Positions 16,577 to 64,000 of a stretch of DNA of 64,000 nt are shown in pieces; the first letter of the stretch is position 1, and every line of letters begins with the position of its first letter. The notes below the pieces were generated by a model, which searched no databases, was not told the origin of the DNA, and saw only the letters and a program-made list of their open reading frames with translations. This stretch comes from Dictyostelium discoideum (taxonomy: Eukaryota): assembly GCA_000004695.1 (NCBI GenBank), contig CM000153.2:1152001-1216000 (forward strand). The letters are read 5' to 3'. A program made the translations under genes and the position numbers.

Positions 16577-18093
16577 ATTAAAATTTAGGGAAAAAATTTA
16601 TGGTTTGAAAAAAATTATATGTTTGTTTTTAATTTTTTAAATTTGGATAATAAAAATCAAATAAAATTGAAAATAATATTTTTGGTTTGAACAAATTGTT
16701 ATAGATTATTGCTCTACACAATTAATAAATAATTTACAAAATTATTTATTTAAAACCTTTAAATTTACAAATAACTATATACGAAAAAAAAAAATTAAAT
16801 AAAAAAATAATAAAAAAAAAATGAAATAATTAAAAATTTTAATATTAAAATAAGAGAAAAAAAAAAAGTATTAAGTAATACTCAAAATAGCAACATAAAA
16901 AATAATAAAAATAATAATAATAATAAAAAAAAAAAAAAAAAAAAAAAAATCGTCAAAATAACAAACATACCAATAATTCCAACCACATAAAAAATATTAT
17001 AATTTAACAATACTATAAATATAATTATCCATTCATTATAATTATCATTATTTAAATTTTTAATTATCAACTCTTCAATTCACACAAATTAATAGTATTC
17101 ACCACCCTTTTTGGAATCCTCATTAGATTTTTATTCTATAAATTTTAATGAACAAAAATGAGAGAAGAATTTTATTATTTAAAAAAAAAATAAAATAAAA
17201 TAAAAAAAAATTAAATAAAAAAAAAAATAAAAAAAAAAAAACAATCAACTACAAATTCATCAACGATTTTTTAAAGTATATGTGTGAAAATTAATTTTTA
17301 AAAATCATTTAAGTATAAGAGGGTATAAGTTTAATTATTTATATGAGAGAGTTTATGAATAATCTGTTAAAAGATTTATAAATATTTTTTTTTTTTTTTT
17401 TTTTTTGTTTGTGTTAATAAAGGTGTTGTTTTTACTTGTATTTTTTTTGGGGGGGTAGTTAAGTGGTATTCAGTAATATTTTTTTGGAAAATTAACGGAG
17501 ATAATATGTTGATTTATCGAATACAATCTTTTGAACATTTATGTGTTAAAAGTTAACCCTAAAATGGAATATTTTAAAATGAAAAAATATTAAAAGTAGG
17601 ATAAATTGTGGAAAGTATTTATTTTGATAAATAGTTGTAAGGTTTTATTATACCTTTATCATCATATGTATCATCATTTTCTAATTTGTGGATTTTTAAT
17701 ATTAACAACATATTTTTTTAAAAAGGGTGAAAAAAAAAAATAAAAAATAAAAAATAAAAACAATTTGGCAGTTGTAATTTAATTATTTTACAAATATAAA
17801 ATAACAATAACAAGAAAAAAAAAAGAAAAAAAAAAAGAAAAAAAAAGAAAAAGATACATTAACATCAACATCAACATTAGGAAAAAATACATACATGTAT
17901 AGGTATATATTTAAATACACACACTTATTCAAAATTAGAAATTTTAACCATTTGCGCTCTAATCATATTTTTTTTCATGTTTCCATTTTAAATCATTACT
18001 AATTATTGAAAATCTACATTTAGAATTGAATGGGTATCAAAGGGTTTAAATTATTTTTTGTATTATAATTTTAATTCTTTAAATATAAATAAA

Positions 18094-18843: not shown

Positions 18844-18849
<6 letters not shown>

Positions 18850-18989
18850 AAATTTGTCAAGGTATCTTGGTGATGATGGTGATCCCATTGAAATGTTTTG
18901 TTTAATTGTTAATGTTTGACAATATTGATATTGATTTTCTTCATTTATAAATGAATTATGTTGTTTACATCCCATTAAATTATTATTAC

Positions 18990-19046
<57 letters not shown>

Positions 19047-20176
19047 TACCATTATTATTACTACCATTATTACTATTATTACCATTATTACTATTACTAT
19101 TATTGTTATTATTATTATTTAAATTTGAATTAATATCAAGTTGTTTGAAGAGTTTAAATGCTTCATTTGTTGGTGATGATAAAACTATAGTTTGATTATC
19201 ATCATAATTTGGTTTTTCTATTGATTTTTGAGGTAATTCAACTTGAGGGCTAGGATGCCAATAATTTCCATTTGGGTTTACATTACCAATACCCATTATA
19301 TTATTTGAATTATTTTCATAAAATTTTTTCATCATTTCAATATCATTAACTTTTAATTCATATTCTTTAGCATTTGTTATAGTTCTTTGATAAATATGAT
19401 CATATAAAACTTTTCTAAACTAAAACATTATTTAAGTTAATATTATTAGGGAATTGAATATAATTTAATTAAATTAAAAAAAAAATAAAAAAAAAATAAA
19501 AAAAAAAACATACTCCATTAGTTGATAAGAAAGAATGTGGTGAAACTGTATAATATAAATCTTCTGCACCTTTATCAGATATTAAAATTGGTCTTCCATC
19601 TGTGGAAAATCTATCAAATCCTAAATAAAATGATACATCATCAATTTGGGTATTAACACCATAATAATGTTGAATTAAATCATTTTTAGTTGGTTCTGAG
19701 GAAAAAAAAAAAAAAAAAAAGGGAGAAAGGGGGGAAGGGGTTAGAAGTTGATCGAAAAACAAAATTTTCAAATAAAAAAAATTAAATATTAAAAAATGAA
19801 AAACATACCCCTTCCAAATTTTTTATAAAATGATAATGTATTATTAATTATAGTTTGAGATGGTTCTTCGATATTAGTACCTAATAATAATATTTTATTT
19901 GAATTATTTTTTGTTTTATCCATAATCTCTTCGAATTTTGATAAAAGTTCATTATCATTACCACGTTCTAATAATTTTTTATATTCACCATAAAATATAA
20001 TTCTAACCCCATTCTCTTGAAATAATTTAAAAAAATCATAATTTGGATCTAACAACTTTGATAAACCCCATAAATATTGAATAAACTTTGGCAAATATTC
20101 TGGCCCACGTTTTTCTAATGTACAAAACCACATTGGGTAAACAATATTTTTAATTCCATGCTAAAAAAAAAAAAAA

Positions 20177-20216
<40 letters not shown>

Positions 20217-20651
20217 TAATTAATTATAAATAAATAATAAAATAAAATGGAAATTAAGTAATTAAAAACTTACTTGGAACATCATAATTGATAAATATAA
20301 AAAATTATGAACTGCGGTCTTACTATATTCATTGTAATCAATTTTAATTTCTGTATTTTTATTATTATTAATATTATTATTATTACTATTATTATTATTA
20401 TTTGAAATATTATTTGAATTATTATTTAAATTATTATAATTGGCAGAATTTGAAGTATTGGCAGATGTAGCCAATGGAGAATTACAAACTTTTAAATTTT
20501 TTAAACCTTGAGAAATGAGATAAGATCTTCTAGTACCATCGTAGGCAAAAACCATTGTTGAATTTTCACCTTTTAAAGAGGTATATAATTTTGAAATTTC
20601 ATCATTTGAAAGTTTATAAAAATTTTCTTCTAAAATATTATTATTGGTCAT
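18844..20651 (-). CDS. paralogue B of the same family; CDS join(20651..20274,20160..19809,19695..19514,19419..18844)
   Basis: Exon 1 reads MTNNNILEENFYKLSNDEISK...MVFAYDGTRRSYLI...poly-N...LYLSIMMFQ with a GTAAGT donor. Exon 2 reads HGIKNIVYPMWFCTLEKRGPEYLPKFIQYL...VRIIFYGEYKKLLERGND...KKFGR and ends at a GTATGT donor in phase 1. Exon 3 reads EPTKNDLIQHYYGVNTQIDDVSFYLGFDRFSTDGRPILISDKGAEDLYYTVSPHSFLSTNG with a GTATGT donor. Exon 4 reads FRKVLYDHIYQRTITNAKEYELKVNDIEMMKKFYENNS...*. It is about 495 aa and colinear with paralogue A, but has three introns against one in A. Confidence 0.7.
19691..19760. other. G-rich block (gggagaaaggggggaaggggttag) inside intron 2 of paralogue B; atypical composition
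   Basis: Runs of 4-6 G in a genome with about 22% G+C. It lies within the intron between exons 2 and 3. Confidence 0.5.
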
Positions 20652-39438: not shown

Positions 39439-40760
39439 ATGTTTTCAACATCAACAACTACAAACCCAAATAATGATATTGAATTATCAAGTCCACCAAG
39501 TGATGGTGTATCTTGTTTAAAATTCTCACCAAAAGCAAACAATTTTATAGTAGCAGGTTCATGGGATCAAAAAGTTAGATGTTGGGAAATAAATCCATCA
39601 ACAAAATCATCAATGCCAAAAGCAATCATAAGTCATGATGCTGCAATTTTATGTACAGATTGGAGTGGTGTAAGTTTATTTTAAAAAATAAAAATATCAA
39701 ATAAAATAATAATAACTAATAATAATAATAATATTTTTTTTTAAATTTTTAGGATGGTACAAAAGTATTTACAGGTGGTGTTGATGGTAAAGGAAAATGT
39801 TGGAATTTAGCAACTAATCAAATGGTACAAGTAGCACAACATACAGCACCAATTAAAGAATGTTTTTGGATTGAAGAGAGTAATGTATTAGTTACAGCAT
39901 CATGGGATAAAACATTGAAATATTGGGATACAAGACAACAAACGGGTACACCTGTTTTATCATTAGAATTAACTGAAAGAATATATGCAATGGATATGTT
40001 ATACCCATTATTAGCAGTTGCAACAGCAGATAAAAAAATTTATATTTATGATCTTAAAAATCCACAATCACCTTATAAAACTGTAGACTCATTATTAAAA
40101 TTTCAAACAAGATGTATATCTTGTTTCCCCGATAAAAGTGGTTTCGCTTTAGGTTCAATTGAAGGTAGAGTTGCAATTCAATCTTTAGATGATTCAAAAC
40201 AAGAGTAAGTTTTAAAAATTTTAAGAAAATATATAAAAAATTTAAAAGAAAATAACAAAGAATGATATTAATTATACCCTTCTTCTTCTTATTCTTTTTC
40301 TCTTTTTCATCACCCTTTACTTAAATAAATAAAATATATTTTATTTTTGGATAATTTATTATTATTATTATTATTATTTGGGATGATTTTATAAAAAAAA
40401 AAAAAAAAAAATAGAAATTCATTTACATTTAAATGTCATAGAGAAAATGATACAGTAGCATATGCAGTTAATAATATTTCATTTGCATTACCATATGGTA
40501 CATTCGCAACAGCAGGTTCTGATGGTGGTTTCAGTTTTTGGGATAAAGAATCCAAATTTAGATTAAAACAATTTTCAAAATTACCACAATCAATTTCAAC
40601 AGCAACTTTCAATCTTGATGCTTCTTTATATGCTTATGCATCATCTTATGATTGGAGTAAAGGTAGTCAATATTTTGATCCAAATCAACCAAATTCAATT
40701 TTCGTTCGTGTGGTTGGTGATGAAGCAAAAAAAGGAAATAGACAAACTAAAAAGAGATAA
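39439..40760 (+). CDS. rae1: mRNA export factor Rae1/Gle2 (WD40 repeat); CDS join(39439..39669,39753..40204,40415..40760)
   Basis: The protein reads MFSTSTTTNPNNDIELSSPPSDGVSCLKFSPKANNFIVAGSWDQKVRCWEI...DWSG|DGTKVFTGGVDGKGKCWNLATNQMVQVAQHTAPIKECFWI...SWDKTLKYWDTR...GFALGSIEGRVAIQ...|NSFTFKCHREND...GSDGGFSFWDKESKFRLK...YASSYDWSKG...*. It is nearly colinear with human RAE1 (SSPPDDSIGCLSFSP...NFLIAGSWANDVRCWEV...GSWDKTLKFWDTR...GFALGSIEGRVAIHY...DNFTFKCHR...GSDGRFSFWDKDARTKLK...YASSYDWSKG). Donors are GTAAGT at 39670 and 40205. About 342 aa. Confidence 0.85.
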
Positions 40761-40877
40761 ATAAAAATAAAAATTAATAAAAAAAAAAAAAAATAATAAT
40801 AACAACAATCAATACAAATAGTACAATGCAAATAATACAGACTTCAAATGAATATTTAATGTAATCATCCAAGAAAT

Positions 40878-40910
<33 letters not shown>

Positions 40911-40980
40911 CTAATAAAATATAAAAGAATAATAATAATCTTTTTTCTTTTTTTTTATGTAAAGTTACAGAGTGTTTTTT

Positions 40981-41011
<31 letters not shown>

Positions 41012-41105
41012 TAATCAATTAACAAATAAAAAAAAAAAAAAAAAAAAAAATATCTTTTTCTTTTTTTTTTTTTTTTTCTTTTTTTCTTTTTTTTTTTTAT
41101 TTATT

Positions 41106-42626
41106 TTAAGAAGTATATTTAATTCTCATTCTAACAGCAAGATTACCTGGAAGTGCTGGATCAGTGATTGTAATTTCATCATCTTCTTGAACATTTAATT
41201 CTGATAAAGTTTTTTCAAGATTTGGAACAGTTGATTGATGAAGGAGTCCTTGCATATAAAGGTTTCTACCATTTGAACGAAGTGATGGTTTTTTAAATTG
41301 GAAACGAGAATCGGTTGTAATCTTTTCGAGAAAAGTAGAGAGTGTATTTGATTTATCGATTTCAAATGTTACCAAATTTGTACCACAAACTGCACAACCT
41401 TCCTTAATTTCGTATTCAAATGTGAATGTGTAAACACCATTCAAACCATTATACATCATATAGTTATTTAAATAACCACTACTATCGGTACAAAATTTAA
41501 AAACTTCATTACAACATGCTGCTGCAATGATTGCATTGGTTGATGCAATTGCTGGAATAATATTTTTAGCAACACCTTGAGTTAATTTGTATGTGACACC
41601 ATTAATATTGAATTTTTCAGCTCTCTTTTTTGCACATTCAAATAACCAATTCATATGATCTGGATTATCATTATCAAATTGTTCTTTTTATAAAAAATAA
41701 AAAAAATAAATTATATATATATTATATTTTATTAATATTTTTTATTTTTTTAAATATGTTATTAATTATTATTATATTATTAAACTTACTTGGATCAAAT
41801 GGTTTTTCAAGAGTGGCATCTTGAAGTCCAAATAATAAAGCCCATTGAATACAATGTTCTGGTACACGTGGAGTATTTGCAATTGTACATATAGCATAAG
41901 AAACTTGTGGTGGGAAAGCATCCAATGAACATTCAAAACATGAAGAAATCTTTGGAAGAATTACTCTTGCTTGACCTTTGAAACCCTCTGTACCACCATC
42001 AACCAATGGAATGATTGTATCTGGTTCAATATCACCACTATCATTTACAACAACTAAATTAACTAATAAACCATTAATCCATCTTCTTGCTTCTATTGAA
42101 TCTAAACCTGCAATAACAATTTTAAATTGTCTATAATAATCTTCATCTTTATCTTGAATTCTACATTTATGTCTTTTAAAAATAAAATAAAATAAATAAA
42201 ATTAATAAATTATAAAATTAAATAAAAAAAAATAAAAAAAATTTATTTTACTTACGGAGTTACATTACAACCAGTAATTCTTGAATTAATAAAAGCTGCA
42301 GCAACTTCAGCTTTTGATTTTCCAACATCCTTTCTTCTGAAAAGGAATTGTCTATTTAAATTTGAAATATCAATTGTATCCATATCGATAACATCGATAT
42401 TTCTGAAACCAGATAAAGCAAGATTCTTTAAGATTTCACAACCTAAACCACCAGCACCAATAACTAATACCTTGAAATCATTTTGTAAACCATTCATAAT
42501 ATTTGGTGATGCTTTTGTATCTGGTTCAAAACTTGGTGAAGCAAATGGACCTGTTCTCTTTATAATCTTTTCAATATCTATCCATCTACCTGGTAAATCA
42601 ACTGAAGTATCCATTGTTTCCATCAT
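41106..42626 (-). CDS. uba3: NEDD8-activating enzyme E1 catalytic subunit (UBA3); CDS join(42626..42256,42172..41790,41683..41106)
   Basis: Exon 1 reads ...[74 protein letters not shown] and matches human UBA3 ([63 protein letters not shown]), with a GTAAGT donor. Exon 2 reads [16 protein letters not shown]...[57 protein letters not shown]...PFDP, carrying the catalytic Cys in LDAFPP context. Exon 3 reads [63 protein letters not shown]...MRIKYTS*. Phases are consistent. About 444 aa. Confidence 0.85.
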
Positions 42627-42929
42627 TAATATTTTATTTATCTAATTAAATTATTTATTTGTATATATATATAAATAAATAATCTTAATAAATTCCAAAA
42701 ATTAAAAAAATTAGAAAAAAAAAAAAAAAAAATTAAAAAAAAAAAAAAAAAAAAATGATATTTTTGAAATTAAAAAAAAGAAAAAATAAAAAAAAAAAAA
42801 AAAAAAATAAAATTAATTGTTTTTTTTTTTTCCTTTATTATATTTTTAAATAATTCATTGAAAAATCCTAATTGGAAGATCACCTTTATTTATATTTTTT
42901 ATTATTAATTTTTTTTTTTTTTTTTTTTT

Positions 42930-43271
42930 TTACAATTTTGATAATTTAATATAATTGTTTCTACGATTTTGATAAATCGTTTTTTCTATAAGATCAATTA
43001 TTTTTAAATTTTTAATTTGAGATATATTAAAGTTATTATAATTTGAAAATAAATATATTTTAATTTTTTCAGCACTTTCGTCACTTATTTTATATTGATC
43101 CAATGTTTTATCTAATATCAATGCACAGGTTTCTATATCTAATTCCTTTGAAATTAAATTAATAATATCATTTTTAATTTCCTTATTATTTTTTTTATTT
43201 ATTTGATTGTTGGTTTTTATATTTTTTTTATTAATAAATAAAGTATTAATGGAATTTAATGAAGAAATCAT
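42930..43271 (-). CDS. hypothetical small N/K/I-rich protein (113 aa), possibly spurious
   Basis: It is an intact 113-codon ORF, MISSLNSINTLFINKK...DIINLISKELDIETCALILDKTLDQYKISDESAEKIKIYLF...*, just upstream of uba3 on the same strand. A stop-free run of this length is unusual in such A+T-rich DNA, but no homology was recognised. Confidence 0.25.
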   Translation of the reverse strand: MISSLNSINTLFINKKNIKTNNQINKKNNKEIKNDIINLISKELDIETCALILDKTLDQYKISDESAEKIKIYLFSNYNNFNISQIKNLKIIDLIEKTIYQNRRNNYIKLSKL

Positions 43272-43556
43272 TATATATATTTATATAGAAATATATTTTT
43301 TTTTAACTTTTAATTTTTAAAAACAATGGCAAATATTTGAATAATATTTCTTTTTTTTTTTTTTTTTTTTTTTATCATTTAATTTAATTTAATTTTAAAA
43401 TAATTAATTCAAATAATAAAAAAAAAAACAAATTATCTTTAAAAACTCAATAATATTTTTTAATACATTAATACATGTATTATAATAATTTAAACTTGTA
43501 TAAATTAGACACATAATGAAAAAGGATAAAATTAATAGGATATGAAAATAAATTAG

Positions 43557-43562
<6 letters not shown>

Positions 43563-43635
<73 letters not shown>

Positions 43636-43830
43636 TTTTTGGGGGGGGAAAAAAAAAAAATCCCCGGGGGGAAATTTTAATTAAAAAAAAAAAGTCCTTT
43701 TTTAAGGGGAAAAAAAAAAAAACCGGGGTAAACCCCCCAAAAGGGAAAAAGGGTTAAATTTTTTTTTTTTTTTTTTTTTTTTTTCCAGGTTTTTAGTTTT
43801 CCCCAATTCCTTTTTTTTTTTTTTTTTGTT
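43563..43830. other. anomalous block of alternating long homopolymers including poly-G and poly-C (a60, t9, g8, a12, t, c4, g6, ...); likely sequencing/assembly artefact or unclonable region
   Basis: The sequence aaaa...ttttttttt ggggggggaaaaaaaaaaaatccccggggggaaattttaattaaaaaaaaaaagtccttttttaaggggaaaaaaaaaaaaaccggggtaaaccccccaaaagggaaaaagggttaaattttt looks as if every base has been stretched into a run. G and C runs of 4-8 are essentially absent from the rest of the window. Confidence 0.6.
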
Positions 43831-43916
43831 TTTTTTTTTTTTTCTTTTCAATTTATCTGTTAATAATTATTATCTCTATTATCCATTGTGTTTTTTATAT
43901 GTATTTTTAAATAAAA

Positions 43917-43973
43917 ATGAATAGTTTATCTCAAGGGAAATTTATATCCTTAATAAAAAAAAACAAATGGTAA

Positions 43974-44004
<31 letters not shown>

Positions 44005-45356
44005 AATAATTAAATAAAATTACACAACAATTAAAAAAAATACTAATTATTCTTTTTTTTATTTTTTTATTTATTAGGACAATATTTGAAAATGACCTTA
44101 ATATAATTCGTTGTGGTTCAACAATATCAGAATTATGTACAAGTTTTAAATTTAATTCTTGTTTGAATATTATTATTCATGAAACTGTAAATACAAATAT
44201 TGTAACACCAAAAGTTTTACAAAATCCAAACAATAAAGTATTCACAGAGAATGATAATGCTGGACCTTCTTTTATTATCGCATATTATGAAGGACCAAAT
44301 TGTAAACCATTAGAGAAACAACAATTTCATGATTCTTTTTTAAATTTAATTAAAATGTTATCTGTAAGTATTTTATTTTATTTAATTTTATTTTTAATTT
44401 TCAAAACTATATTTGATATTAACTTTTTTAAAATATTTAATTAATTCATTTCCATTTTCATTTTCATTTTCTTTTAATTTTTATTTTTGGAAAAAAAAAA
44501 AAAAAGAAAAAAATAAAAATTAAAAAAGTATTCAACTTTTGTCAACAATATAAACAAGATCAATTATTTGAACAACATTTAAAAAAATATTCATTTAAAT
44601 CATCATTTTTTAATAAAAATCAAAATCAAAATCAACATTGTGAAAATAATATTTCAGATATTATTAATAGAATTGGTGATAAAGAATCAATTGTATTTAA
44701 TTCTCCCAATTCTTATGATTCAATCAGTTTTTCATTATTATCAAATATTGTTGATGTTAAACCATTATTAAAACATGGTAGTATTTTTGTTTATAAAAAG
44801 AATTATAAAGATTTAATTTATGTTTTATTAGAAGAACCAATTTCAAAATCATCTTCTGCAATTCAAAAAATTAAATCAAATTTATTATTTCAATATATTT
44901 ATATATTTTTAACTGTTTGTATCATCTTCCTTTTAAATAATAATAATAATAATAATTATTTAAAATAGTTTATTAACATATATATTTTTTTTCCTTTTCT
45001 TTTTTTTTATTCTTATTCACCAATAGGAAAGTAATAAATTTAATATTGAAGTTATTAAACTAACATCACAATTACAAGTTAATTCATTAGAAGAGATAAT
45101 TTCATCAAATTCATATCATGACGGATACCATTCAATTCAATCACCTGGTGGATTTAGTTTATCAAATAGTTCAATGGGAGGTTGTAGAAGAATATTTAGA
45201 GGTTCTTCATGTTTTTCCGTACCATTGATCTCACCATCTTTATCTCTTAAATCTTCAACTGAAAATTCACCAAATTTAAAGAAACGTGTTTCACCTCATT
45301 CCTATTCACCAATAGTTTCCAAAAATTCAATAAATAATAATAATAATAATAATAAT

Positions 45357-45398
<42 letters not shown>

Positions 45399-46139
45399 GG
45401 AAATAGTATAAATGAAAATAATGAAAATAATAATAATAATGAAGAATACACTTTAACATCACCATCGGCAATTAGTAATATTAATTTAGAAACATTATCA
45501 TCAAATCGACTATCACCAGCTATTTCTTTAAAATCATCTAGATCTTCAAATTATATGTTTACATTACCATTAAGTCCAACAAGTAATACAATTGAGCATG
45601 TTAAAGATAACCAAGGAAATGAAATTACAAAGATTAATCAAGTATCATATATTGAACCTCACATAATGTTTAAAGCATTCCAAGAATTTAATGAAAGAAA
45701 GATTAATTGGTTATTAGTTGGATATGAAGGTAAAAATATGAAATTGGTTGGTAAAGGTGTTAATGGTTTACCAGAATTAAAACAACAATTAAATGAATCA
45801 AAAGCTTATTTCGGTGTTGTTGGTATAACTTTCTCTGATTCAAGAAATTTTGGAAATAATACAAATACACTAACCTATAAAGGACTTTTTATAGAATGGT
45901 TAGGTAATAATTCATGTACAAGAGAAAGGGCAATGATTGGCAGTCATTCACCTGCTGTCACTTTATTATTTAAACAAAAATCAGCAATTCATTGTGATTT
46001 AAGATGTGATGATATTGATGATTTATCAGAAGATTATGTACTTCAAAAAGTTACAAGTTTTAGACAAGAAATTCAATTCAAAAAAGTTGTCAACTCATTA
46101 ACAACAAGTTCAAATAATTTAATTGAAACTGTTATTTAA
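43917..46139 (+). CDS. ADF-H (actin-depolymerising-factor homology; coactosin/drebrin-like) domain protein with N-terminal region of unknown function; exons 43917..43969, 44078..44363, 44507..(3' boundary unresolved, <=44957), 45027..46139
   Basis: Exon 1 is MNSLSQGKFISLIKKNK with a GTAATT donor in phase 2. Exon 2 follows TTATTAG and reads W/TIFENDLNIIRCGSTISELC...KPLEKQQFHDSFLNLIKMLS with a GTAAGT donor at 44364. An open coding-like frame runs 44507..44957 (KKIKIKKVFNFCQQYK...IGDKESIVFNSPNSYDSISFSLLSNIVDVKPLLKHGSIFVYKKNYKDLIYVLLEEPISK...), but its donor could not be fixed. The last exon follows CAATAG (45026) and reads ESNKFNIEVIKL...poly-N...KINQVSYIEPHIMFKAFQEFNERKINWLLVGYEGKNMKLVGKGVNGLPELKQQLNESKAYFGVVGITF...*, the ADF-H consensus (xWxLxxYEG..xxLxxxGxG.GlxELxxxLxxxKvxYgxvRv). 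Confidence 0.6.
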
Positions 46140-46185
46140 AATTTTTAAAATTTGAAATAAACATTTATTATTTATATATTTTGTT

Positions 46186-46218
<33 letters not shown>

Positions 46219-46221
46219 ATT

Positions 46222-48727
46222 TTATTGAATGATAGAATCAGAATTTGAATCACTACTTTCAGATTCAGAATCTGAATTTTCAATAACTTCATCTTTTTCA
46301 ACTACAACAATGTTTTCTTCTTCTAAAATTGGAGATAGTGTTATCATCATATTATGATATTGTCTTGGTGACATTGGTTCTTCAACTCGTGGTGTAGCTA
46401 ATGAATTAATTGAACGTGGTGTTAAAATTCCATCAGTACGTGGAGTATTTAAATCATTTGTACGTGGAGTACTTAAATCATTTGTACGTGGAGTTATTAA
46501 ATCATTTGTACGAGGAGTTGTTAAATCATTTGTACGAGGAGTTGTTAAATCATTTGTACGAGGAGTTGCAGTTAAAGTACGAGGAGTTGGATTTGGTTGT
46601 TCACTTGATTCTGTATAAGTTGGTTGTTCACTTGGTTCTGTATAAGTTGGATCATCATTATAAGTCATTTCATTTGCAGCTTCAGAATTTGGTTGAACTG
46701 ATTCAATAAAAGTAAAAACATCCATACATTCAATGGTATCACCTTTTGAGGAGGAGGATGATTGTTTACTTTCTTCATCATCATCAGTAAAGTCATAAAG
46801 GAAAAGGTTGACTCTTTTTGGAGCATTTTTAGAACTCTTTTTAGAAATTGAATCTAAATTTGTTGGGTCATTAGTTGTTGAAGATTTATTTTTTCTTTTA
46901 GAAGTTGATGATGAAGATTGTCTAAATATTTCATTTGAACCTTCAGCACCATAAATTTTTAAAGCCCAGAATTTTGGAATGAACATTATTGTAATTATAG
47001 CCGCAACGATGAATATAAAACCTGAGCAAAGTATTTCAGTATTGTGACCAGTTTTTGAAATGGTTAGAGGTGCAATTATTAAAAGACAAAATACAATAGA
47101 ATATAAACTGTAGGCAACTGATTTGGATTCATTAAATTCTTCAATATCGACTATTCTAATTTTCCAAGATACAAAAATACCAATCATTACAATTATTGCA
47201 AAATAACCTAATAAAAAGTATAACGCAATTAAACCACCATCCATCATTTCACATTGTATTTCATATGATGAAAACTTTTCATCATTAGGGAAAACTTTAA
47301 ATGGTGTTAATTTTCCAAGACCTGTAATCAATGATAATAGGAAAACATTTAATAAAAACATTCCAAGTACCCATGGAAGTAATTGAAGATTGGTGATTTT
47401 AATATGATAAAGTTTTGGATTATCAAAAATTAACCAAATTCTAAAATTCTTTACCACAATACCACCAATCATCGTTGTAAGACCTAATGAAATTAACCAA
47501 AATTTTGCATTACATGTGAATACATTTACACCACTAACCCAAATAATTACTCCAATATATACAAATATCCCTCCAATCACTATAAATATTAAAAAAGTTG
47601 GACTTGCTGATTTAAATGATGGTTTATTTTTATATTTAATAATACAAATTTGTATTATAATTAATGCACCAATTAAAATACTTGAAACTATTGTTATACC
47701 ATATTCAATTGTTTTTGAAATTGGTTTCTTTTTATTTTTTAAAAAATTTATTATTAATAAATTATTATTATTGTTTATTATTATAATTAAAATTATTATT
47801 ATTGTTTTTTACTTACAAATAATATATAACCACTTATAATACCTAAATCAATTATACTTTCATTATTTAATTGATTTGTTAAAATTATATTTGTATCATT
47901 TAAAATTTGATTTTCTATCATTGATAAATTTGAATTAATATTATTAATTATTAAATTTGAAATTGATGGGTTAAAAATTAAATTAATATTAAATTGTGAA
48001 TTGGTTGATTCGTTATTATTTGTATTATTATTATTATTTGTATTTGTATTATTAATTAAATTCGAAATTATTGGTAAAATATATAAAGTTAAATTATAAA
48101 CTGAATTAAATAAAACATGATCTTTATTTAATGGTGGTGAAATTAAGAAACCATTGGAACCAATAATTTTTATATTTTGTTTTAAAAGTATATTACAAAA
48201 TGTTAAATATTCATTATTTTCAAATGATGATGAAATTAAATCAACACCATTCTTTAATAATGATGATACTGATAATTCAATAATTTCTTGAAATGGGAAA
48301 TTATTATTTGAAGCATTTTTAAAATCATAATCAATGGTGTAAAACATTAATTTAACCATTGGATTCGATAATCTTGCTCCAAAATAAAATGTATCCAATA
48401 GTGTTTGATCTTGGATTTTATTGGTTTTTAAATATCCTATTATATTCGTTTCACTAATTAATCCAGAAATATATCCACTTAAAAGTGTTGAAATTTTGAA
48501 TGGGTAGTTTATTTCATAAAATTTATTATTATTATTATTATTATTGTTTGTATTACTGATTATATTATCATTTATTATTATTGTTGTTAAATTGTTAAAT
48601 GTTTTCGATATATTATTCGCATTTTCAGAAAATATTGATTTATAAAATATTATTAAATCGATTTTCTCTTCAATAATTATATTATATAGTATATCATTTT
48701 TATTATTTATATTATTACTATTATTAC

Positions 48728-52397: not shown

Positions 52398-55300
52398 TTA
52401 TTTTTTATTTGATTTAACAGATTTATATAATTTTAATAAATATTCATTTGAATCTTTGTTATTTAATAAAACATTTTTTAAGAGACCTTCATCATCAAAG
52501 AATTCCATTTCATCTTGGAATTCTTTTAATTCATTTTCGAAACAATTTAATAATTCTTTAACATCTACCTGAATCTTTGTACAATTTGTTGATAAATGAT
52601 TTTTAGTTTCTTGAATCCAATTTTCTTCGGTACATGAGGATGGTTTAATGATTGAATGGAATTTTGATAACAAAGAGAAGAATATTAACCAAGGACGAGT
52701 GATATCGAAAAGTTTATCTTTTGATGGTTCATCTGGAGAACTTAAACCATTCTTTGTATTAGTGGTGAGATAATCAACAAAAGCATAAGCCAATAGTTTT
52801 GTGAGGTAATTGAATTTTTGATTTTCAAATTCTTTTGGTGAATGTAAAAAGATTGAAACCACTAAAAAGTATGGTACATTATCGGATAGCATTTGATACA
52901 TTGAAGTGATTGCAGTTTCCAATGGTAAAGTTGTGAATTGTGCTAAAGTCTTTTCAAATTGTGGACGTCTTAATTGATTGGCAGAGTTACCTCCAACCAA
53001 CTTTTGATCCAATAAAAACATACCAAGTTGGACAAACATTGGTGCAATTCTAATATTACTTTCTTTGCCACCACCTTTAGAATCGGTACTGAAAGATTCA
53101 TCCTTTGCCAAACGAATCAATAAGAATTTGAGATCATGAGAGAGTATACGGAATTTTGGTCCTTCGACACGAGAGATATTGTTGAGATTAACCCAGAATT
53201 TATCAGAGTAGGGAGTGAATGCATCACTATTCATCTTTGGTGGAAGTACAGGGAAAAGACCATTACATTTGGTTTGTTGATTTCTGAGTGCAGCACCTTC
53301 CCATTCTTCTTTTGGTACCTTCATACTTCTATCTGCTTTGGTTGCATCACGATGACAATTGAAATGAATGAAATTGAAATGAGTTACTGTAGTGAAACCA
53401 TAATATAAAGCACCACCACCACCACCTCCACTACTACTTGGGGAGAGAGAAAGTGAAGCAGCGACATTGGTTGTTGATGATGGTGGACAAGTTGTTTCAC
53501 CCACTGATGTTAATGGAATTCTCTTTGAGAAGGTATAGATACCTAATACATCGGTTGGTTTAAATGAATAACCTTCTCTACAAACCATACAAGTGAAACC
53601 TTCATCATCATCCAAATCTTCAATTGAACCTGGAACAACGTTTGCCATAATATGTTTACCTTGTTGAGCTAAACCCAATTGTTTCAACACATCTTCTCTA
53701 TGTTTTTGAGCATGACTTAATTTTTCCATCTTCGATTCCTTACGAGTATCACTTACAATCTTTGAGGTTTTTTCATTGCCTTCAGCGATTGACTCTAATA
53801 AATTCTCAGCTAAACTTCCAATCTTTGCACTAGTACCAGCTGTTTCTTCAAGTATATGAATTCTTTTGATAAGGTTAGATTCTAGAGTCATATTTTGAGT
53901 TGGTTCATGACCCATTGCTAAACCTTTTAATAATACTAAAACGAATGGTAAAGCTGGTTTCTCCAAAGAGGAAAGCCATTCTTGGCTAGTCTTATCACCA
54001 TTTTCAGGGAAGTAATTTAATAAGTAATCAACCAATGATTTAGTGATACCACGCTTAATAATGATTGAACGAATACTTCTACCATTTGAATCTGGACGAG
54101 TATTTTCCATAAGTTTGGTAAAGAAATCAAGATGATAAACATGATTGGTATCTTTTGATTTTGAATCATCAAACTCTTGGAAATTTAAATATGGTGTGAA
54201 AAAGTCAACGAGATAATCCATAATTTCAGTGTGACCATAGGTAAGGAATGGAATAATTCTTGTGATTGCTTGAATGATCTTTGGATTTGACATTACTTGA
54301 GCACCGTTTAATTTATCTAAAAACATATTCATTTGTTCTTGAGCTTCATTGATATCTTTATGATGTGAGAGTGAGGTAGAAGAATTTGAACCACGAAGAT
54401 AATCACGATTTGCTTCGCTAACTACCGATTCAATGATGACCAATAAATGTTCGGAAAGTTCTGGTTGATGGAAAGCTTGTTTTAATTTCTCCAATAATCT
54501 ACCAACAGTATTGAGTGTAAGTAATTTTTGACGATTAATTTTAATCTTACAACAATGGTAGAGTAATTTAATTACTAATTGTGCCAATTCCTTCTCGATT
54601 GAGAAATCATTGATACGTTCAATCATTGAGATCATTGATTCCAAACCACCGCATTCAGCCATAACACTTGTGATTTCATATTCAACTTCTGGATCCTTTT
54701 CTTCAGAGTTATTATCATTAAGAGTTTCAATGATTTCTTCAGTTGCTTCACCATCTAAACCTTGAAGACGATAAACTACATTCATTGGAATATTGATATC
54801 TGCTGTTCTTAATGCTTGTGGACTCTTTTTCCATACTAATTCGTAAACTTTTTTAATTGGTAAATCCAATTTAATGATCTTATTATCGACTAATAACTCC
54901 ATACCATTATCATCATCTAAGAAACTACCTAAATCTAAAGCTTTACAAATCTTATTCTTTACATCTCTCATGAGTGGACCACCAAAGGTATTGGAAGTAT
55001 ATGGGTTACGATTCATTGAACCTCTAATGTATTCCTCTTGAGATGCAGCTTTAAAGAGTATCAATTGATAGATTGGATCTGGTTTGGTTGGACAAACAAT
55101 ATTACAAAGTTGTTCGAAAATAAATATTGGAGTTCTACCATCCGATTGATATTTAGCCAATGCTTTAATATTAGCAGCCATAAACTTCTTATTGTCTTGA
55201 ACAGATTCATTGTTTAGTGATTTCATCAACTCTTGGAGATAACGTACAGAATCCTCGGTTAACTTATTCTTTTGAACGATAACACCACGAAGTGATAAGA

Positions 55301-57073
55301 AAGCATCCAATACCTTTTCTAACATATTATCTTTCTTCATCTTTGCTTTAAGAGTTGGTACATCGAGGAATGATTTAAGTATAGCAACTAAAGTTTTCAA
55401 AACAAAACCTTGTGAAACATCAGTACTAAATGAACCTTCCTTTGATTTGATATGTTCAATCTCCTTGATGATAGCATCACAAATGAATGGAATGAAACCT
55501 TTTACAGCTAAATAAATCTTACGATCTTGAGAGGTTGAGATAAAACTATTGAAAAGTCCGAAAAACTCTGCAGAATATTCACCTGCCTCTGTTGCATTTG
55601 GAAGAATCTTTGTAAGGAGATCCAAGAATTTAAGTGATCTACTATTGCTATTCTTACTTAAAATACCCATCAAAGTGATTATTTCAAGACGAATTGATGA
55701 TGTTGAATTGAATAACAATTTCTCTAACCATTTCTCTTCAAACAATACCTCGAAACTTGATTGAGTTGCATAACCAATACCTGAAGATTGTTGTTGTTGT
55801 TGTTGTTTTCTCTTTTTAACTTGAGCATACCATCTCTTGAAATATTTACTCTTTAATTCATCTTGGCTAAGTGGTTTCAAAGATTTTGATATTTCACCGA
55901 TTGAAGAGTTTACATTGAAATTAGATAAATAGTTTTCATATTTTGATGACCAAGCATTTGCAATTGGATTATCATCACCATCCCATGATTCGTTAGCACC
56001 TGCATTTGAAGTATCATTATCAAAGATTGATAATATGTTTGGATCTTGAGATGAAGATATTGAACCACTACCACTAACACTACTACCACTACTACTTCCA
56101 CTACCACCACCACCATTTTCGCTACCAGTAGCACCAACACCAGATGGAGATGATGAGGAAGAAGATGGTGATAAAATCTTTAAACCTGAAACAGATTCAT
56201 TCAATTGTTGTTGCTGTTGTTGAATTTGTTGTTGAATTTGTTGTTGTTGTAAAGCGATTTGTTGTTGAATTTGTAATTGCATTTGTTGTGGTGAAAGTAA
56301 TGATGATGCAACAGAAAGTGCAATATTATTCACAGTATTTGGTGAAAGTAATGATGATAATGCTTCAATCTTCTTTTCAATGGTTGAGGTTAATGAAGCA
56401 TTAGCTGCTGTTGCTGTTGCTGTTGCTGTTGCAGCCAAAGCAATGGCTTGTTTCTTTGATGATTTTAATTTTTCAAATCTTGTTGCTAATAATTTTTGAG
56501 AGATTTCAAGATCTTTTGCATCCTTTGTAATGAAAGCACCTTTACGATCAAGAGTACATAAATAAATTATGATTTTGAGACATGGTAAAATAATATACTC
56601 TGAAACCACTGGACTTTGAGAGCCACTTGATAAAGCTTTAAAGAATAACTCCATTATGAATGATAATCTTTGTGGCCAAATATTATCAGAGAGTGAGGAA
56701 CATTCTTTCAACAATGAGATTTCACTTGAGACCATGTTTGGAACATCCAATGATGAATAATAACAAAGTGTGTAGTAAATCTTGTCTTTAATCCATTGAT
56801 TAACCATTGAAGTACAATCAATATTTGATTTGGTAAGATAGGATAATGATGATTTAGCCCAACCCTTTGCAATACTCTTTCCATGATGAATATTATTAAA
56901 GAATATTTCTTTTGGTAAACCTTTTTCAATCAAAAGATTCTTAATTGGTGTTAACTCTGAATTTCTACAGAAGGAATTTAATAAACATAAAACCTGTTCA
57001 ATGTATGAATTTGAACAACCATAACATTTATTTTCTTCACGTAAATGAATTGAAACAGGACATTGTCTGGATG

Positions 57074-57109
<36 letters not shown>

Positions 57110-60100
57110 CATTGGAAGAGGGTTGACCACCACCAGAAATGAAATTCATATATTTTGAAATTTCCATTCTATTGGTTTGTAAAATTTGAACACTCTTACT
57201 TAAACCTTCATAAATATTTCTACATTCTCTTTCATATAATCTACTAAGGTAGCCAATCTTTTTATTAATTCTAAGTGTAAGGAATGATGAATTATTGGAT
57301 GTACCACTTTGATTGATAACACCACCACCACCACTACCAACACCGCCACCACCATTTCCACTTGAAGATTGATTGGAAATACCAAAGCTTGAAGAAGATG
57401 AAGATGAAGAATTTGTTGAAATATTACCACTACTACTATTGATAGATTGATTATTGCTACCAGTTGAATTGGTTGAAGTATTAGCGATACTAATTGTACC
57501 ACCTGAACTTTTAATTAAATCATCCTTTGACCATGGTTCTTGAGTTTCAAAAGAATTGATTAGACCAGAGATAACTTTTTTAAAACCAATTAATCTTTGG
57601 TACTTTTTATGAGCATTTTCAGATTCTTTCTCTATGGTTTGAATAGCTCTCTTGTGATCCTCTTGATTTTCAATCTTTTCAATTGCAATGGTTGGTTTAC
57701 AAACAAAGGAGTAATCAAATTTGGCATGTTTACAGAAACCACATTCATTACAGAGGAAAGCGTCTAAATTTTCATAGTTGATATTACGACAATGTTTACA
57801 TTGATAGGCATTCTCATGACAATTCTTACAGATACCATGCTTATCAGTGACGATTCTACTACAACGTGGACATTGAAGTTTTTCAGAGGAAGCAGCTTGA
57901 AGGTTATCGTGGAAATCAAAATATTCAATCATAAAGTTTCTAGCAGAGATTGGGATTTGGAAAACAACAGCCTTTTCAGTTTGAGATGGAGTGAAATGAA
58001 CTTGTTTCAACTTTTTCCATTGATTAAATTTACCCTTGAGATCACCAATGTCTGCAACTGGTTTATTGTTGTAGAAAAGATTGATGGTTTTAATCATCTT
58101 TCCTTTCTTGACATCATGTAATTGAATCATAATCTTGGAGATATTATAAACACCATTGAATTTGATCAATTGTGAATACTCTGAGAATTTAACCTCTTGT
58201 TTCAATGATTCTAAACGTGATGTTTGATATTGTACCTCTGGATTATTACAAACTAAACATGGTTCACTCTCTAAATAATATCCATCAAATTCTAAAATCT
58301 TTCCCAAACTATTATAAATTTGTGAATTTGGATGATTTAATGAAATTTGATTTTGTTGTTTAAAGCTTTCAATTAATTTATTTGAAAATTCTATTTTTTA
58401 TAAAAAATAATAATAATAAAATTAATATTTCAAAAAAAAAAAAAAAAACAATTAAAAAAAACAATTAAAAAAAACAATTAAAAAAAACAATTAAAAAAAA
58501 AAAAAATATATTAATTTTCACAATATATTATTGTTTCAAAAAAAAAAAAAAAAACAATTAAAAAAAACAATTAAAAAAAAAACTAAATACAAACCATTAT
58601 GTTGATCCTTCCAAGATTGTGAATCAGTTTCATTTAAAAAGTAGGTTAGTAAATCCATAAATTCACTTGCATTTTTACCATATGACGCAACATTATTTAA
58701 TTTTGACCAAAGTGATTTATTAATGAAAATTCTTTGTTCATTATTTGATGACTAAAAAAAAAAAAAAATTTAAATTAGTAATTTGAAGAGGAATAAAAAA
58801 AAATAAAAAAAAAAAGGCAATAAAAAGGTAAAACTTACTCTCCATAAATAATAAATAAAACTACTAGCTATTGATCTTAAATCAGAAGAGTTTGATTCTA
58901 ATAATATATTAAATATTAAAACATTGAAATATTGTTCTTGAAGGAATATTGAAATATGTTTTGCTTTAGTGTCAACATCTTGCATTAAAATATCATTGCT
59001 GTTGTTGTTGTTGTTGTTGTTTGATGATTCTTGTTGTGTATCTTGAGATGTTGATGATAATGGTTGTTCTGCTATTTCATCAACAAATACATAGGTTAAT
59101 AATTCCAATAACAATGAAGATGGTTCTTCTGCAAGATTGAATAAGATTTTGTAGAGTTTTGGTAATACATCATTATGAGCACAAAAGAATTGCCAACTCT
59201 TTGGTCTATCACTTGCTACTTCTAACATTAAGGTAAGATAAGAAATTAATTTGGCCAAATGATCATAACCAATTTCATCAGAGAAACCTTTTGTTTTACC
59301 TTCTAAATCCAAGATACCAGCAAACTTCTTTTTCAATAAGAATTCATCGCGAATTGAATAATAGGATGACTTGGTTTGATAAATTAAAAACAATAGTTTC
59401 TTTGGATATTTTACAATTGAAACAGTTTTCTTTGAATGAATGAAAGAACAGATTAGGTTAGTCCATTCGGATGGTTTTATCAATGTAGGTGTAGTTTGAG
59501 TAATCGATTTCTTTCTTCTCTCACAACGATAGAATGTAATCATCAATTTGAAGATTGCTTTTGAGAGTAATAAATGAATTGAACCCATTGATTGTGGAAG
59601 GTATTTTCCAAAGAATGGAGTGAATCTATTCTTTGGTAGAGTTTGATTTTCATCAATTGATGGAACTAACAATGCACCAAAAGGTGAATCTCTTTCCTCA
59701 CCAACCGATAACCCATGTGATTCAGAGATACAGGTATACAATTGTTCAATCCATAATCTTAAAAGTTGAATTATATCTCTATCAATAAATAATTTTGATA
59801 AATGATAAATTAATGTCGATGGTAAACTATGTGGAGTTGTTACTACTGAAGGAGTTGTTACTGTAGCTGTTGCTGTTGTTGTTGTTGTTGCTGCTGCTGC
59901 TGCTGTAGTTGTTGTTTGTTTACTTTGAATCTTTTGTCTCTTTTGCTCGTCAGAATCTAATAATAAACTTAATAATGAGAAAATTAAAATATCACCTTCA
60001 AGATTATTTGATTTGGTTGATAAGAATTTGGAAAGATTTGATTTATGTTTGGAAATTAAATTAACAAGAGTTGTTACAAGTTGATTGGATAATTGATTAT

Positions 60101-63100
60101 TGTTGAGGATGAATGTAGTATTATGTAAAATTGTTGAATAAAGGATTTGCATATATGGAATCATAAATGAAAAACCTTTTTCATAAGATACTATAATCTC
60201 TTCAATAATTAATTTAATGAAACCAACCATTGGTTCTTCATTTGTAGTTGGAGTTGTTTTATTTGTGGTTGTTGTTGTTGTTGTTAATGTTGATGTATCC
60301 ATTGATTCATTATTATTATTATTATTATTATTGTTATTTAAACTCATTGAAATTGCAATTTTAAGTTCTTCATCATATTCAGAATCATCTTGTAAATCTT
60401 GTTGTAATTGTTGATCCTGTTGTTTTTGTTGTTGTGGTGGTTCATTTGTTGATTCTTTTTCATCACCATCTTTCATTGGTTCATCAATTATGAATTCTTT
60501 AAATATATGATCCTTTGGATGGTCTTTTTCTGGATTTTGATAACATTGATTACAAAGATCAAAATCACCACAATTACTACAATTCCATCTTTTACCTGTT
60601 ATTGGATTAATATTACAAAGATCACAAGAGAATAAAACTTCATCAACCATTTGTATATCACCTTCATTTTCTTTATTGGTGTTATCGTTGTCGACAACAT
60701 TTTCATTTGATGATGATGATGGTGGTGGTAATAAATTGGCAACGGTTGAATTATTACCAGATTTCGAAATAAATGAAACTAATATTAAAGATGATCTAGT
60801 TCTAATGATTTCATTTGAATGTGATAATAATGATTTTAATAAGGTAAAGATTAAATCTGTTGAGAAAATCTTTGATCTTTGACAATTCCAAAGTAATTGA
60901 ACTAAATTTGAAATGAAAGAATCAGAGTAGAGTAAAGCATTTGAAGAGACTGCTCCATTATTGCTACCACTTTGGGTATTGGATGGTAATGTTGATGTTG
61001 CTGTTGTTGTTGATGATGATGATGATGCTGATGCTGATGATGATTTACCTTTACTAGAGGATGGAGAGGTTGTATTACGATAGATTGTTAAAAGATCAGA
61101 TAAAAAGTTTGGATGATCTTTGAATAAATATTTCTCTAAATTATTTGGATTTGATGATGAAATCTTTTTCAAAGCTGCAACTAAATAATCCAATTTTTCA
61201 AGATCAGCAGAGTTTGGGATTGTACCACCACTATTTGATAAGATTGATGAAACTGTTTGACTTGCATATTTTAATTGAATACTATGTTTCAATGTTTGAT
61301 AATGTTCACTATTGGTTGAAAGAATCTTTAACAATTTCTTAATAGATGATCTAACAAAAGATAATTGTGAATCTGTAATCATTGATGGAAGAATTGATAA
61401 AGTTTTCTCTTTAAGTTCAATGAATTTTTGACTGTCATCATTGGCTACATGATTTGAGAAATAGTTTTTCAAAGAATTAAAGCAGTGAAGTATAACAATT
61501 TCTAATGGTGTATGTTTATCAGCAGTTGAATCATTTGTGCCAGCAACACCGCCACCACTACCACCTGCACTTGTGGATAAACCAGAACTTGTAACATTTT
61601 CATCTACAGTTGGGAATTCATCATCGGAATCATCTGAATCATTGAAACCAAGGGAATCTTTATTTTTAGCGTAAACTTCAACTTGATCGATGATTGGTGA
61701 TGTTCCCATTGTAAATGTTGATCCAGCAGTAAAAGAAACCTTTTTAATGGATCTTAAAGTTTCTTCAGTGGTGAATGGAATATCATACCATCTTCTTTGA
61801 CCTTCCTTTAATTGAATAGTACGATTGAAAACTCTAATCTCTGTTGGGATATGCTTAGTGGATGCATTACCAACCAAAATACGAATACCACAAATAGCAT
61901 TATTGAAATTATTATTCATAATGACCAAAGTAAGGGTTTCTAATGATTGACAAACAATGTATTCATCATTTGAGGCAAGTTTTTGTTTAATTACATCTTG
62001 AGAGAACCATTGTAATGGATCGCCACCATATTTAACATTTGGTGTTATACATTCTGTACTTTCAAAGAAATCAATTGGGAATACTGGTGAAGTTGTTGTT
62101 GTTGTTGTTGGTTGTAATAATAATGATGAAAGTGGTGGTGGAGATTTTATAACAGCTGATGTGGATGTTGTAGATGATGATACAGTAGCAACATTGTTAC
62201 CACTACTATTAATACTACTACCACTATTATTCTTATTAATTGAATCTTGATATTTTGATTTCAAATATAAAAGAATATCTAAACCTTTTTTATCAGACTC
62301 ATTGATTGAATCAGTGGTGGTTGAGGTTGTTGGTAATGGTTGTTGAATGGTATTTTCAAGATTAAAGTCATATCTACCAATTGAACCATCATCAAATAGA
62401 ATTAATAATTTTGGAGAAGAACGATTTAAAATGGTCATACCCTCTACTCTTTGAGTAAGTTTAAGATTTTGAATGGAAATATCTTTTGTACCCATTTTGA
62501 AACCCAATAAATAACCACCACGTGCTGCTAAACAAGCATAAACATTTGGAAACATTGGTGATAAATTGATAAAGTATTGAGCTGGCATTGGTAATTTCTT
62601 TGCTGGATCCATGATTGGGAATGAACGAGTTACGTTGGTCATTGTATCATTGACTTGGAAAGCATAACATTCACCATTGGTATAACTTGCAATCACTAAA
62701 TCCAAATCGATATTATAGTGAACACTAACACCCGCTGAAATTTTATTGATTGGCACTTGGAGAGTTTCAATCATAATACAAGATTCATTATCGATTGAAT
62801 CTTCAATGGCTTGGAAATATAATAAACCATAGTTACTAAGGGCGAGGATATGATTTTTACCATTCTTTTGAACCAAACACATATCTTTGATAGAGTCTTC
62901 GAGTAGAGAGAAGAAATGAATTGGTGAGAGATTATCTTTAGAGAGATCATAAATCTTGATAAACTCGTTGGTTACAATTGCCAATTCAACTTGACTACCA
63001 ATGATCCATTCAACCTTTATAATATAAATAGTTTCACCTAAAGCATCCAAAGATAAATCGATTACCAATTGATCGACAATTTCATCCTTTTGATTGATAG

Positions 63101-64000
63101 TGAGGATCTTTACTTCTTTGAAACCAACAACTGCAAGGAATCTTTCATTGAGTGGATTGAATACCATACTAACGATTGGATAGGCTACGGAACTCTTTGA
63201 TAATGCCTTGCTAAATGAATGTTTATCCAATTGTGCATCATCATCTAAAATCTTTGAAGAATTAAACAATGAAACAGAATCACCTTCAGCAATTGCCAAT
63301 AAACCTTTGGAAGTTGAAGCTATTGCTTTTCTTTGGATTGGTCCACTTGAGAGGAAAGTCTTTAATTGATTACCTTCAACACCTTCAAGTTTGAGTTTAG
63401 CTTCAAAAGTACCATTTTTTGATACTTTTTTAGTGGTAAAGATATCAGTCTTTGAAATGATTTCTCTACTACTGATGGATTGGGTTGAAGATTCTTCAAA
63501 CACCTCTAATTTATTACTATTTGAATCTGATTGTGGTTTAATAAGGTCTGTTTGTACTTTTTTATACATTTCAATTAATTTTGGATAAAGTTCTGATAAT
63601 TTTGAAATGATATTAGATTTATCATTAAAGATTTCATTGAATAATTGTTCTTTATCTTGTTGAGTTGGTAAATTGAAAAAGTAATTATTAATCGATGAGA
63701 ATGTATTACCACTACCTGTGGTACCATTGTTATTATTATTATTATTATTATTAAATGATGGTGATGAATTTGACGAAGATGATGATAAACTATCTGGAAT
63801 AATTGGTTGATCATTAGTATTTGTTGCTGATGAAGTTGTTGAAGCTACTTGTTGTTCTTCTTGTTGTTGTTGTGGTTGTTGTTCAGCTGCAACATTCTTT
63901 TGTTGGTCTTGAGGTGGTTGTTGTGGTTGTTGTTGTTGTTGTTGTTGTTGTAATTGTTTTGGTGGTGAATAAAGTCTTGGTTTAAGAGCTTTACATGGAT
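52398..64000 (-). CDS. giant UBR4/BIG/Pushover-like protein, 3' ~11.6 kb (window contains >3700 codons; N-terminus beyond window end); CDS join(>64000..58838,~58751..58594,58390..52398)
   Basis: Two huge minus-strand ORFs, 58770..63569 and 52398..58307, are colinear. The frame of 58770..63569 stays open upstream through 64000. A GTAAGT donor at 58837, a 52-codon micro-exon (SSNNEQRIFINKSLWSKLNNVASYGKNASEFMDLLTYFLNETDSQSWKDQHN) and a TAG acceptor ending 58391 join them in phase. Content includes a ZZ-type zinc finger (CDLCNINPITGKRWNCSNCGDFDLCNQCY), long Leu-rich/armadillo-like helical stretches, and a Cys/His cluster in the last exon (CLVCNNPEVQ...CPRCSRIVTDKHGICKNCHENAYQCKHCRNINYENLDAFLCNECGFCKHAKF). 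A long conserved C-terminal module is consistent with the UBR4 E3 C-terminal domain. The identification rests on architecture and size, not on a checked alignment. Confidence 0.6.
58449..58580. repeat. 13-nt tandem repeat (CAATTAAAAAAAA)n, 4+2 copies, inside intron of UBR4-like gene
   Basis: acaattaaaaaaaacaattaaaaaaaacaattaaaaaaaacaattaaaaaaaa is visible at 58449..58500 and recurs at 58555..58580. Confidence 0.8.

Follow-up and report, generated by a model that had tools for sequence, protein, structure and literature searches.

Stretched single-base runs in a Dictyostelium discoideum divergent promoter: very probably a blurred copy of conserved DNA

When a short block of intergenic DNA is made up almost entirely of stretched single-base runs, is it a true component of the genome, or a product of the way in which the genome was read? 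This question is raised by a block found in a 64,000-nucleotide stretch of DNA of Dictyostelium discoideum, referred to here as the window, that is, the whole of the sequence analysed. The window has a composition of ~78% A+T and short introns, and it therefore fits a Dictyostelium genome. The first-pass annotation of this DNA, made from the letters alone, had described the block as a series of base calls that had each been expanded into a run, and had attributed it to an artefact rather than to biology.

The run-length encoding of positions 43540-43860 confirms that such a block exists. The encoding begins with the runs a71 t9 g8 a12 t c4 g6 a3 t4 a2 t2 a11 g t c2 t6, continues with a2 g4 a13 c2 g4 t a3 c6 a4 g3 a5 g3 t2 a3, and ends with t26 cc a gg t5 a g t4 c4 a2 t2 c2 t17 g t15. 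The pattern of runs listed previously stands, but the A run given there as 60 bases is actually 71 bases in length (43561-43631). The further claim that G or C runs of four to eight bases are otherwise absent from the window is incorrect, as 25 others are found outside the block, including a G7 at 17449, a G6 at 19729, and three G5 runs.

The clustering of these runs is nevertheless extreme. Of the 32 G/C runs of at least four bases in the window, seven fall in the 165 bp between 43641 and 43805, where 0.083 would be expected for a span of this length (Poisson P ~5e-12 per 165-bp span, uncorrected for the ~390 spans in the window), and these seven runs include both the longest G run of the window (eight bases) and its only C run of more than four. 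From 43662 onward, only four of 30 consecutive runs are single bases, in comparison with a window median of 19, a 1st percentile of 12, and a count of seven in the next most extreme region, while the mean run length is 4.24 in 43641-43763 vs 1.66 in the whole window. The block is the most extreme run-length outlier of the 64 kb window, far beyond chance.

Independent sequences of the same locus were reached through the neighbouring 113-aa ORF. An exact look-up of the product of this ORF led to the 5.58-Mb chromosome of the D. discoideum assembly GCA_054883475.1, where the locus is called L001, and its orthologue was found by homology search in six more assemblies: one other assembly of D. discoideum (GCA_054859385.1), two of D. 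cf. discoideum (GCA_054859205.1 and GCA_054859235.1), two of D. citrinum (GCA_054859145.1 and GCA_054859325.1), and one of D. dimigraforme (GCA_054859025.1). The seven assemblies belong to a group of ten de novo genomes based on Nanopore and Illumina sequencing (Holland et al., PNAS 2025; PMC12745789, PRJNA1300491), a reference-independent set which includes the lab strain AX2-214 (PMC12745789). The features of the locus, as they emerge from the comparison of the window with these assemblies, are listed here.

43559..43758, no strand: block that is very probably mis-called, the sole stretch in ~6.4 kb that differs from L001 beyond homopolymer length
43561..43631, no strand: A71, which would be an inflated homopolymer; L001 has A17-T-A4, and the A-tract of the other assemblies has roughly 20-30 bases
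43632..43648, plus strand: T9 G8, which would be the true TTATGGGGGGT in blurred form; the G-rich box itself is real
43649..43758, no strand: runs that would be a blurred copy of the true TAAAAATTAATAATTTCGATATGGAAATTTTAATTATAAAATAATAGTTCATTTCTTAATGGTAATATAGACTAAATCTGGTTAAATCCATCAAAATGTAAGATTGTTTTAG, which contains a ~95 bp block conserved across four species
43759..43784, no strand: T26, real and identical in L001, the right-hand boundary of the artefact
43785..43810, plus strand: CCAGGTTTTTAGTTTTCCCCAATTCC, a real, conserved element, with a c4 run (43801) that is genuine
43811..43843, no strand: T17 G T15, a T-tract that is real according to the alignments, and lies upstream of the ADF-H gene
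42930..43271, minus strand: 113-aa ORF, the left member of the divergent pair, with 63-100% aa identity in the seven assemblies
43917..43919, plus strand: start codon of the ADF-H gene (Cofilin_ADF, PF00241), the right member of the divergent pair; the gene lies at 195-2417 in L001

Both the extent and the setting of the block require adjustment in the light of these features. The extent had been given as 43563-43830, of which only the part within 43559-43758 can be retained, since 43759-43830 (the T26, ccaggtttttagttttccccaattcc, and a T-run) is normal sequence. The region had also been described as the divergent intergenic DNA between uba3 and the ADF-H gene, which is right for the ADF-H gene, but not for the left-hand neighbour, which is the 113-aa ORF, with uba3 lying further to the left.

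The global alignment of L001 with positions 39925-46333 of the window contains zero substitutions outside the block, over a flank of ~6.2 kb, and 99 of the 112 differing columns fall at 43559 and at 43578-43758. The other differences outside the block are four changes of homopolymer length, AAA at 41028, AA at 42735, TTTT at 43351, and TTTG at 43825. The comparison with an independent assembly, which had been proposed as a check on the block, thus yields a near-identical locus that differs massively only at 43559-43758. Given the lack of substitutions in its flanks, L001 is probably the AX2-214 assembly, a strain label that derives from this identity, and on the same grounds we infer that the window is the AX4-lineage, Sanger-era reference.

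At 43559-43758, the DNA of all seven assemblies is normal, complex, and AT-rich, without the runs of the window, and all seven share the same order of elements, with an A-tract, a G-rich box, the ~95 bp conserved block, a T-tract, and a CCAGG..TTTTCCCC (CCAGG..TTTTCCC) element. The locus reads ...AAATTAGTAAT-A17-T-AAAA-TTATGGGGGGTAAAAATTAATAATTTCGATATGGAAATTTTAATTATAAAATAATAGTTCATTTCTTAATGGTAATATAGACTAAATCTGGTTAAATCCATCAAAATGTAAGATTGTTTTAG-T26-CCAGGTTTTTAGTTTTCCCCAATTCC... in L001, where the run-length spectrum is normal (mean run length 1.67), and its true (L001-like) version can be summarised as ...GTAATA(17)TAAAATTATGGGGGGTAAAAATTAATAATTTCGATATGG...GATTGTTTTAG-T26. The remaining six assemblies align to L001 with a divergence that matches their relatedness. 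Between 43641 and 43763, the window deviates at 28 of the 91 columns that are unanimous among the four discoideum-group assemblies, and at 17 of the 51 that are unanimous among all seven, whereas it deviates at none of the 109 unanimous columns between 43764 and 43917. The 22-mer ACTAAATCTGGTYAAATCSATC occurs once in each of six of the seven assemblies, and is not found in the window even when three mismatches are allowed. Metagenome scans for either version of the string, artefact or true, returned no matches, and were uninformative. The first-pass annotation had conceded that the block might be a bizarre but real element if independent reads were to reproduce it exactly; none of the seven de novo assemblies does so.

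This disagreement might, in principle, be laid at the door of the long-read assemblies, with the window being correct and all seven of the others in error, through Nanopore homopolymer errors, for example. Nanopore assemblies do mis-measure homopolymers, and L001 is off by 2-4 bases in four runs. It also lacks the G at 43828, in the T-tract of 43811-43843, where the window has TTTG and L001 no bases at all; a G is also found at this point in two other strains, and here it is the window that may be the more accurate, and L001 that may be in error. Errors of this type alter the length of runs, however, and cannot turn G8-A12-T-C4-G6 into the complex GGGGGGTAAAAATTAATAATTTCGATATGG. The seven assemblies, from four species, also provide mutually alignable complex sequences with a divergence consistent with the phylogeny, and this agreement between species already refutes the explanation in effect, which is so improbable that it can hardly be entertained.

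The form of the discrepancy is as informative as its position. To the right of the A-tract, the block is colinear with L001, with 80 matches, 38 mismatches, and seven gap columns in 125 columns. An exact AAATTTTAATT is found in the middle of the block, and GT.C, AA, CC.GG, and AAA are all in their correct places. At 31 of the 38 mismatches, the base in the window is the immediately adjacent true base (22.4 +/- 2.6 for random wrong bases drawn from the composition of the block), and at 36 of the 38, it is a true base within 2 nt (27.2 +/- 2.5 for the random bases). A true T is lost in 26 of the 38 mismatches. The A-tract has 71 bases in the window vs ~22 in L001, with 54 extra bases. The limits of the error are also sharp, given that the first wrong base, 43559, is at the start of the A-tract, and the last, 43758, is directly before the T26.

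The neighbour-copying was formalised in a blur model, in which every true base adds a Gaussian peak to the signal, and the base with the strongest sum at a given position is the one called there. The model was run with a sigma of 1.8 nt and weights of 1 for A, 2.5 for C, 2 for G, and 0.85 for T. The true sequence, when blurred in this way, reads ...ggggggggaaaaaaaaaaaattcccgggggggaatttttattaaaaaaaaaaagtcccttttttaaggggaaaaaaaccaaaaccggggtaaaccccccaaaaagg..., and its identity to the core block of the window rises from 64.8% to 82.4%. The same family of models, refitted to control sequences, reached 56.4 +/- 3% (maximum 65.7%) with 20 shuffles of the true core, and 51.7% (maximum 55.2%) with 10 other segments of the window. 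Approximately 18% of the positions, plus the 54 extra A's, are left unaccounted for by the model. Since the register is kept, the wrong bases are copied from their neighbours, and the blur fits, the block would be the real sequence, read out at low resolution.

The kept register also bears on the possibility that the block is arbitrary filler, introduced during the manual or automatic closure of a gap at a contig join, with no blurred read being involved. The block does have a long homopolymer on either side, a setting in which shotgun contigs often end, and the 54 extra A's could have come from the overlap of two unaligned read ends. Filler would not be expected to follow the true sequence in order and register (matches in 80 of the 125 columns, with few gaps), however, nor to be regenerated by the blurring of that sequence, and this origin is extremely improbable, although a join between two low-quality read tails would be compatible with the artefact explanation. 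The suggestion of a read end, a gap fill, or a contig join in the first-pass annotation holds, then, insofar as it invokes an artefact, but not in the sense of arbitrary filler.

The block might also be a real, strain-specific allele, in which slippage or templated mutation made the runs and expanded the A-tract. Homopolymers are abundant in Dictyostelium genomes, where slippage rates are high, and the length of this A-tract varies among strains, from roughly 20 to 30 bases. Such an allele would nevertheless demand, within 200 bp, at least 38 substitutions as well as an expansion of 54 bases, against no substitutions in the surrounding 6.2 kb; these changes would strike 17 of the 51 positions that are otherwise invariant across the four species, and would destroy the conserved 22-mer ACTAAATCTGGTYAAATCSATC. 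Errors that copy their neighbours, keep the register, and can be reproduced by blurring are, in addition, the signature of measurement, and not of any known mutational process. An allele of this type is very unlikely. That the strain truly carries the block, with a local event having rewritten a 200 bp promoter and tripled the A-tract within a few decades, between lab lineages, is an even more strained proposition, although if it were true, the block would represent a new kind of “homopolymerising” local hypermutation.

Given this, 43559-43758 can be regarded with high confidence, by comparison with the other assemblies, as a base-calling or assembly artefact, a blurred copy of real, conserved promoter DNA. 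The original verdict of an artefact, and not biology, is borne out for this interval, where seven assemblies disagree with the window and the blur fits quantitatively. The marks of an artefact found here are the lack of reproduction by independent sequencing, the kept register with bases copied from their neighbours, and the limits set by long homopolymers.

Dye-terminator reads lose phase and resolution after a long homopolymer. In the mechanism proposed here, the consensus at 43559-43758 would have been drawn from a signal without single-base resolution, most likely from the tail end of a Sanger read, or of a few such reads, just past a long homopolymer, which would be the T26 on one side, or the A17-T-A4 on the other. 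Each call would then represent the locally dominant base over ~2 nt to either side, so that minority bases, mostly T, would be replaced by their neighbours, G and C signals would be widened to runs of 4-8, and the A-tract would be over-counted to 71. The 54 extra A's may correspond to a single over-called broad peak or to two merged read tails. The sequencing chemistry, the read direction, and the Sanger-era AX4 identity of the window are all elements of the account that we infer.

The block has much in common with the artefacts of Sanger read tails, which start at homopolymer boundaries, contain neighbour-copied bases in register as well as over-counted homopolymers, and form a short stretch between perfect flanks that independent assemblies do not reproduce. 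It differs in the size of the A-tract, as 71 vs ~22 A's is a large discrepancy for a single read, and may reflect two merged read tails. The block also resembles the natural intergenic A/T tracts of Dictyostelium, given that the A-tract, the T26, and the T17-G-T15 recur in the seven assemblies, and the window contains many A or T runs of 20-58 bases. These natural tracts are composed of A or T only, however, with a normal run-length spectrum between them, whereas the G8, C4, G6, G4, G4, and C6 of the block have no counterpart in the other assemblies, with the exception of a single G6-G8 box.

The real DNA that is obscured by the artefact is, on the evidence of the alignments, an ordinary Dictyostelium divergent promoter region, which ends 160-190 bp upstream of the ADF-H ATG. 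The intergenic region has 583 bp in L001 vs 645 bp in the window, and is thus ~62 bp shorter. Within it, the ~95 bp block (L001 2583-2692, minus strand) is far better conserved than the rest of the intergenic region, over the range from D. discoideum to D. dimigraforme. Its most conserved stretches are TTTCGATATGGAAATTTTAAT and ACTAAATCTGGTTAAATCCATC, and TTCGATATGGAAATTT and AAATCTGGTTAAATCCATC are motifs of the real promoter block. The motif AAATCTGG is located 160-193 bp upstream of the ADF-H ATG, and a G-box-like site lies 75-85 bp upstream of this motif, with one match per intergenic region, at a conserved position, in all seven assemblies. Extra copies of the conserved promoter motifs were searched for in the window, and none was found there.

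The response element for G-box binding factor (GBF) has the consensus (T/G)G(T/G)G(T/G)G(T/G), and functional G-boxes are usually described as paired sites (PMC2257962). The true sequence under the T9-G8 fits this consensus in all seven assemblies, but there is a single site near the conserved block in each assembly, rather than a pair. The pattern is also short, with 25 merged matches in the window vs ~11 in shuffles.

The ~95 bp block was also evaluated as a structured non-coding RNA, a candidate that was dropped after Rfam and tRNA searches and consensus folding on both strands. Rfam returned only chance-level matches to the real conserved block at E<=10, with no tRNA, and RNAalifold gave consensus energies of -0.91 kcal/mol (plus strand) and -0.46 kcal/mol (minus strand), with no convincing covariation. 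As the block appears to have no RNA structure, it is probably a cis-regulatory module of the divergent promoter shared by the ADF-H gene and the 113-aa ORF.

A DUSE-like element on the C-rich strand (CCCCCCATAA) was likewise considered and rejected, given that the box varies between GTGTGGG and GGGGGGT among species, which fits a G-box better, and that there is no RNA-like conserved element downstream on the C-rich strand.

A protein search with the 321-aa ADF-H exon toward D. firmibasis, D. intermedium, and D. purpureum found nothing at E<=1e-10, probably due to the poly-N low-complexity stretch. In the second D. discoideum strain (L002 ~2680-2760, alignment columns 225-300), this intergenic region contains an insertion of ~75 bp, which repeats the flanking AAAACAAATTATCTTT, and would, on that account, be a local duplication or an indel polymorphism.

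The left member of the divergent pair, the 113-aa ORF (42930-43271, minus strand), lies between uba3 and the block, and has a length of 113-115 aa in the seven assemblies, which represent four species. The new assemblies label it a hypothetical protein; it contains no Pfam domain, and has no homologues detectable beyond this Dictyostelium clade. The ORF is likely to be a genuine small gene, restricted to this lineage.

The first-pass annotation had mentioned, together with the block, two smaller G-rich oddities (17447-17456 and 19691-19760), which do not turn out to be similar artefacts, as an independent D. discoideum assembly also contains both, with slight differences. The 13-27 kb region was reached in this case by way of the paralogous gene at 18.8-20.7 kb, a homologue of which led to locus L008 of the second D. 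discoideum assembly. At 19720-19745, the window reads gggagaaaggggggaaggggttaga vs gggagaaagggggggagaggagggttaga in L008, and at 17441-17459, it reads ttttttttgggggggtagt vs ttttttttgtgggggtagt. Judged from this agreement, the G-rich elements at 17448-17456 (G7) and 19720-19745 (gggagaaaggggggaagggg) are real. The former fits the GBF response-element pattern. The latter is apparently intronic, within the minus-strand gene at ~18.8-20.7 kb, based on the ORFs and the paralogue, and on the coding strand it is a C-rich tract ahead of the acceptor.

The paralogous genes of this region are ~4 kb apart, one being a single ORF of 277 aa (14925-15758, minus strand), and the other a multi-exon gene (~18844-20651, minus strand), the orthologue of which is annotated as 460 aa in the second D. 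discoideum strain. The two share the motif SFYLGFDRFSTDGRP, and have homologues across the Dictyostelia, with no Pfam domain on record; an exact look-up of the 277-aa ORF found no record. Elsewhere in the window, the G+C content reaches 31-37% over several kb at 53001-58000 and 59001-64000, vs ~20% in the remainder, with long coding regions or a mobile element as the probable cause.

The signature described here, a run-length outlier with G/C runs between long homopolymers, could be used to flag similar blocks in old Sanger assemblies with no recourse to reads. The block itself has little biological importance, as it represents a local error of ~200 bp in an assembly that appears to be the Sanger-era D. 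discoideum reference. This error would, however, mislead motif scans, the design of primers or guides, promoter constructs, and the mapping of reads at the locus, wherever the sequence of the window is used. What it erases is a promoter block conserved across at least four species of Dictyostelium, including a G-box-like site.
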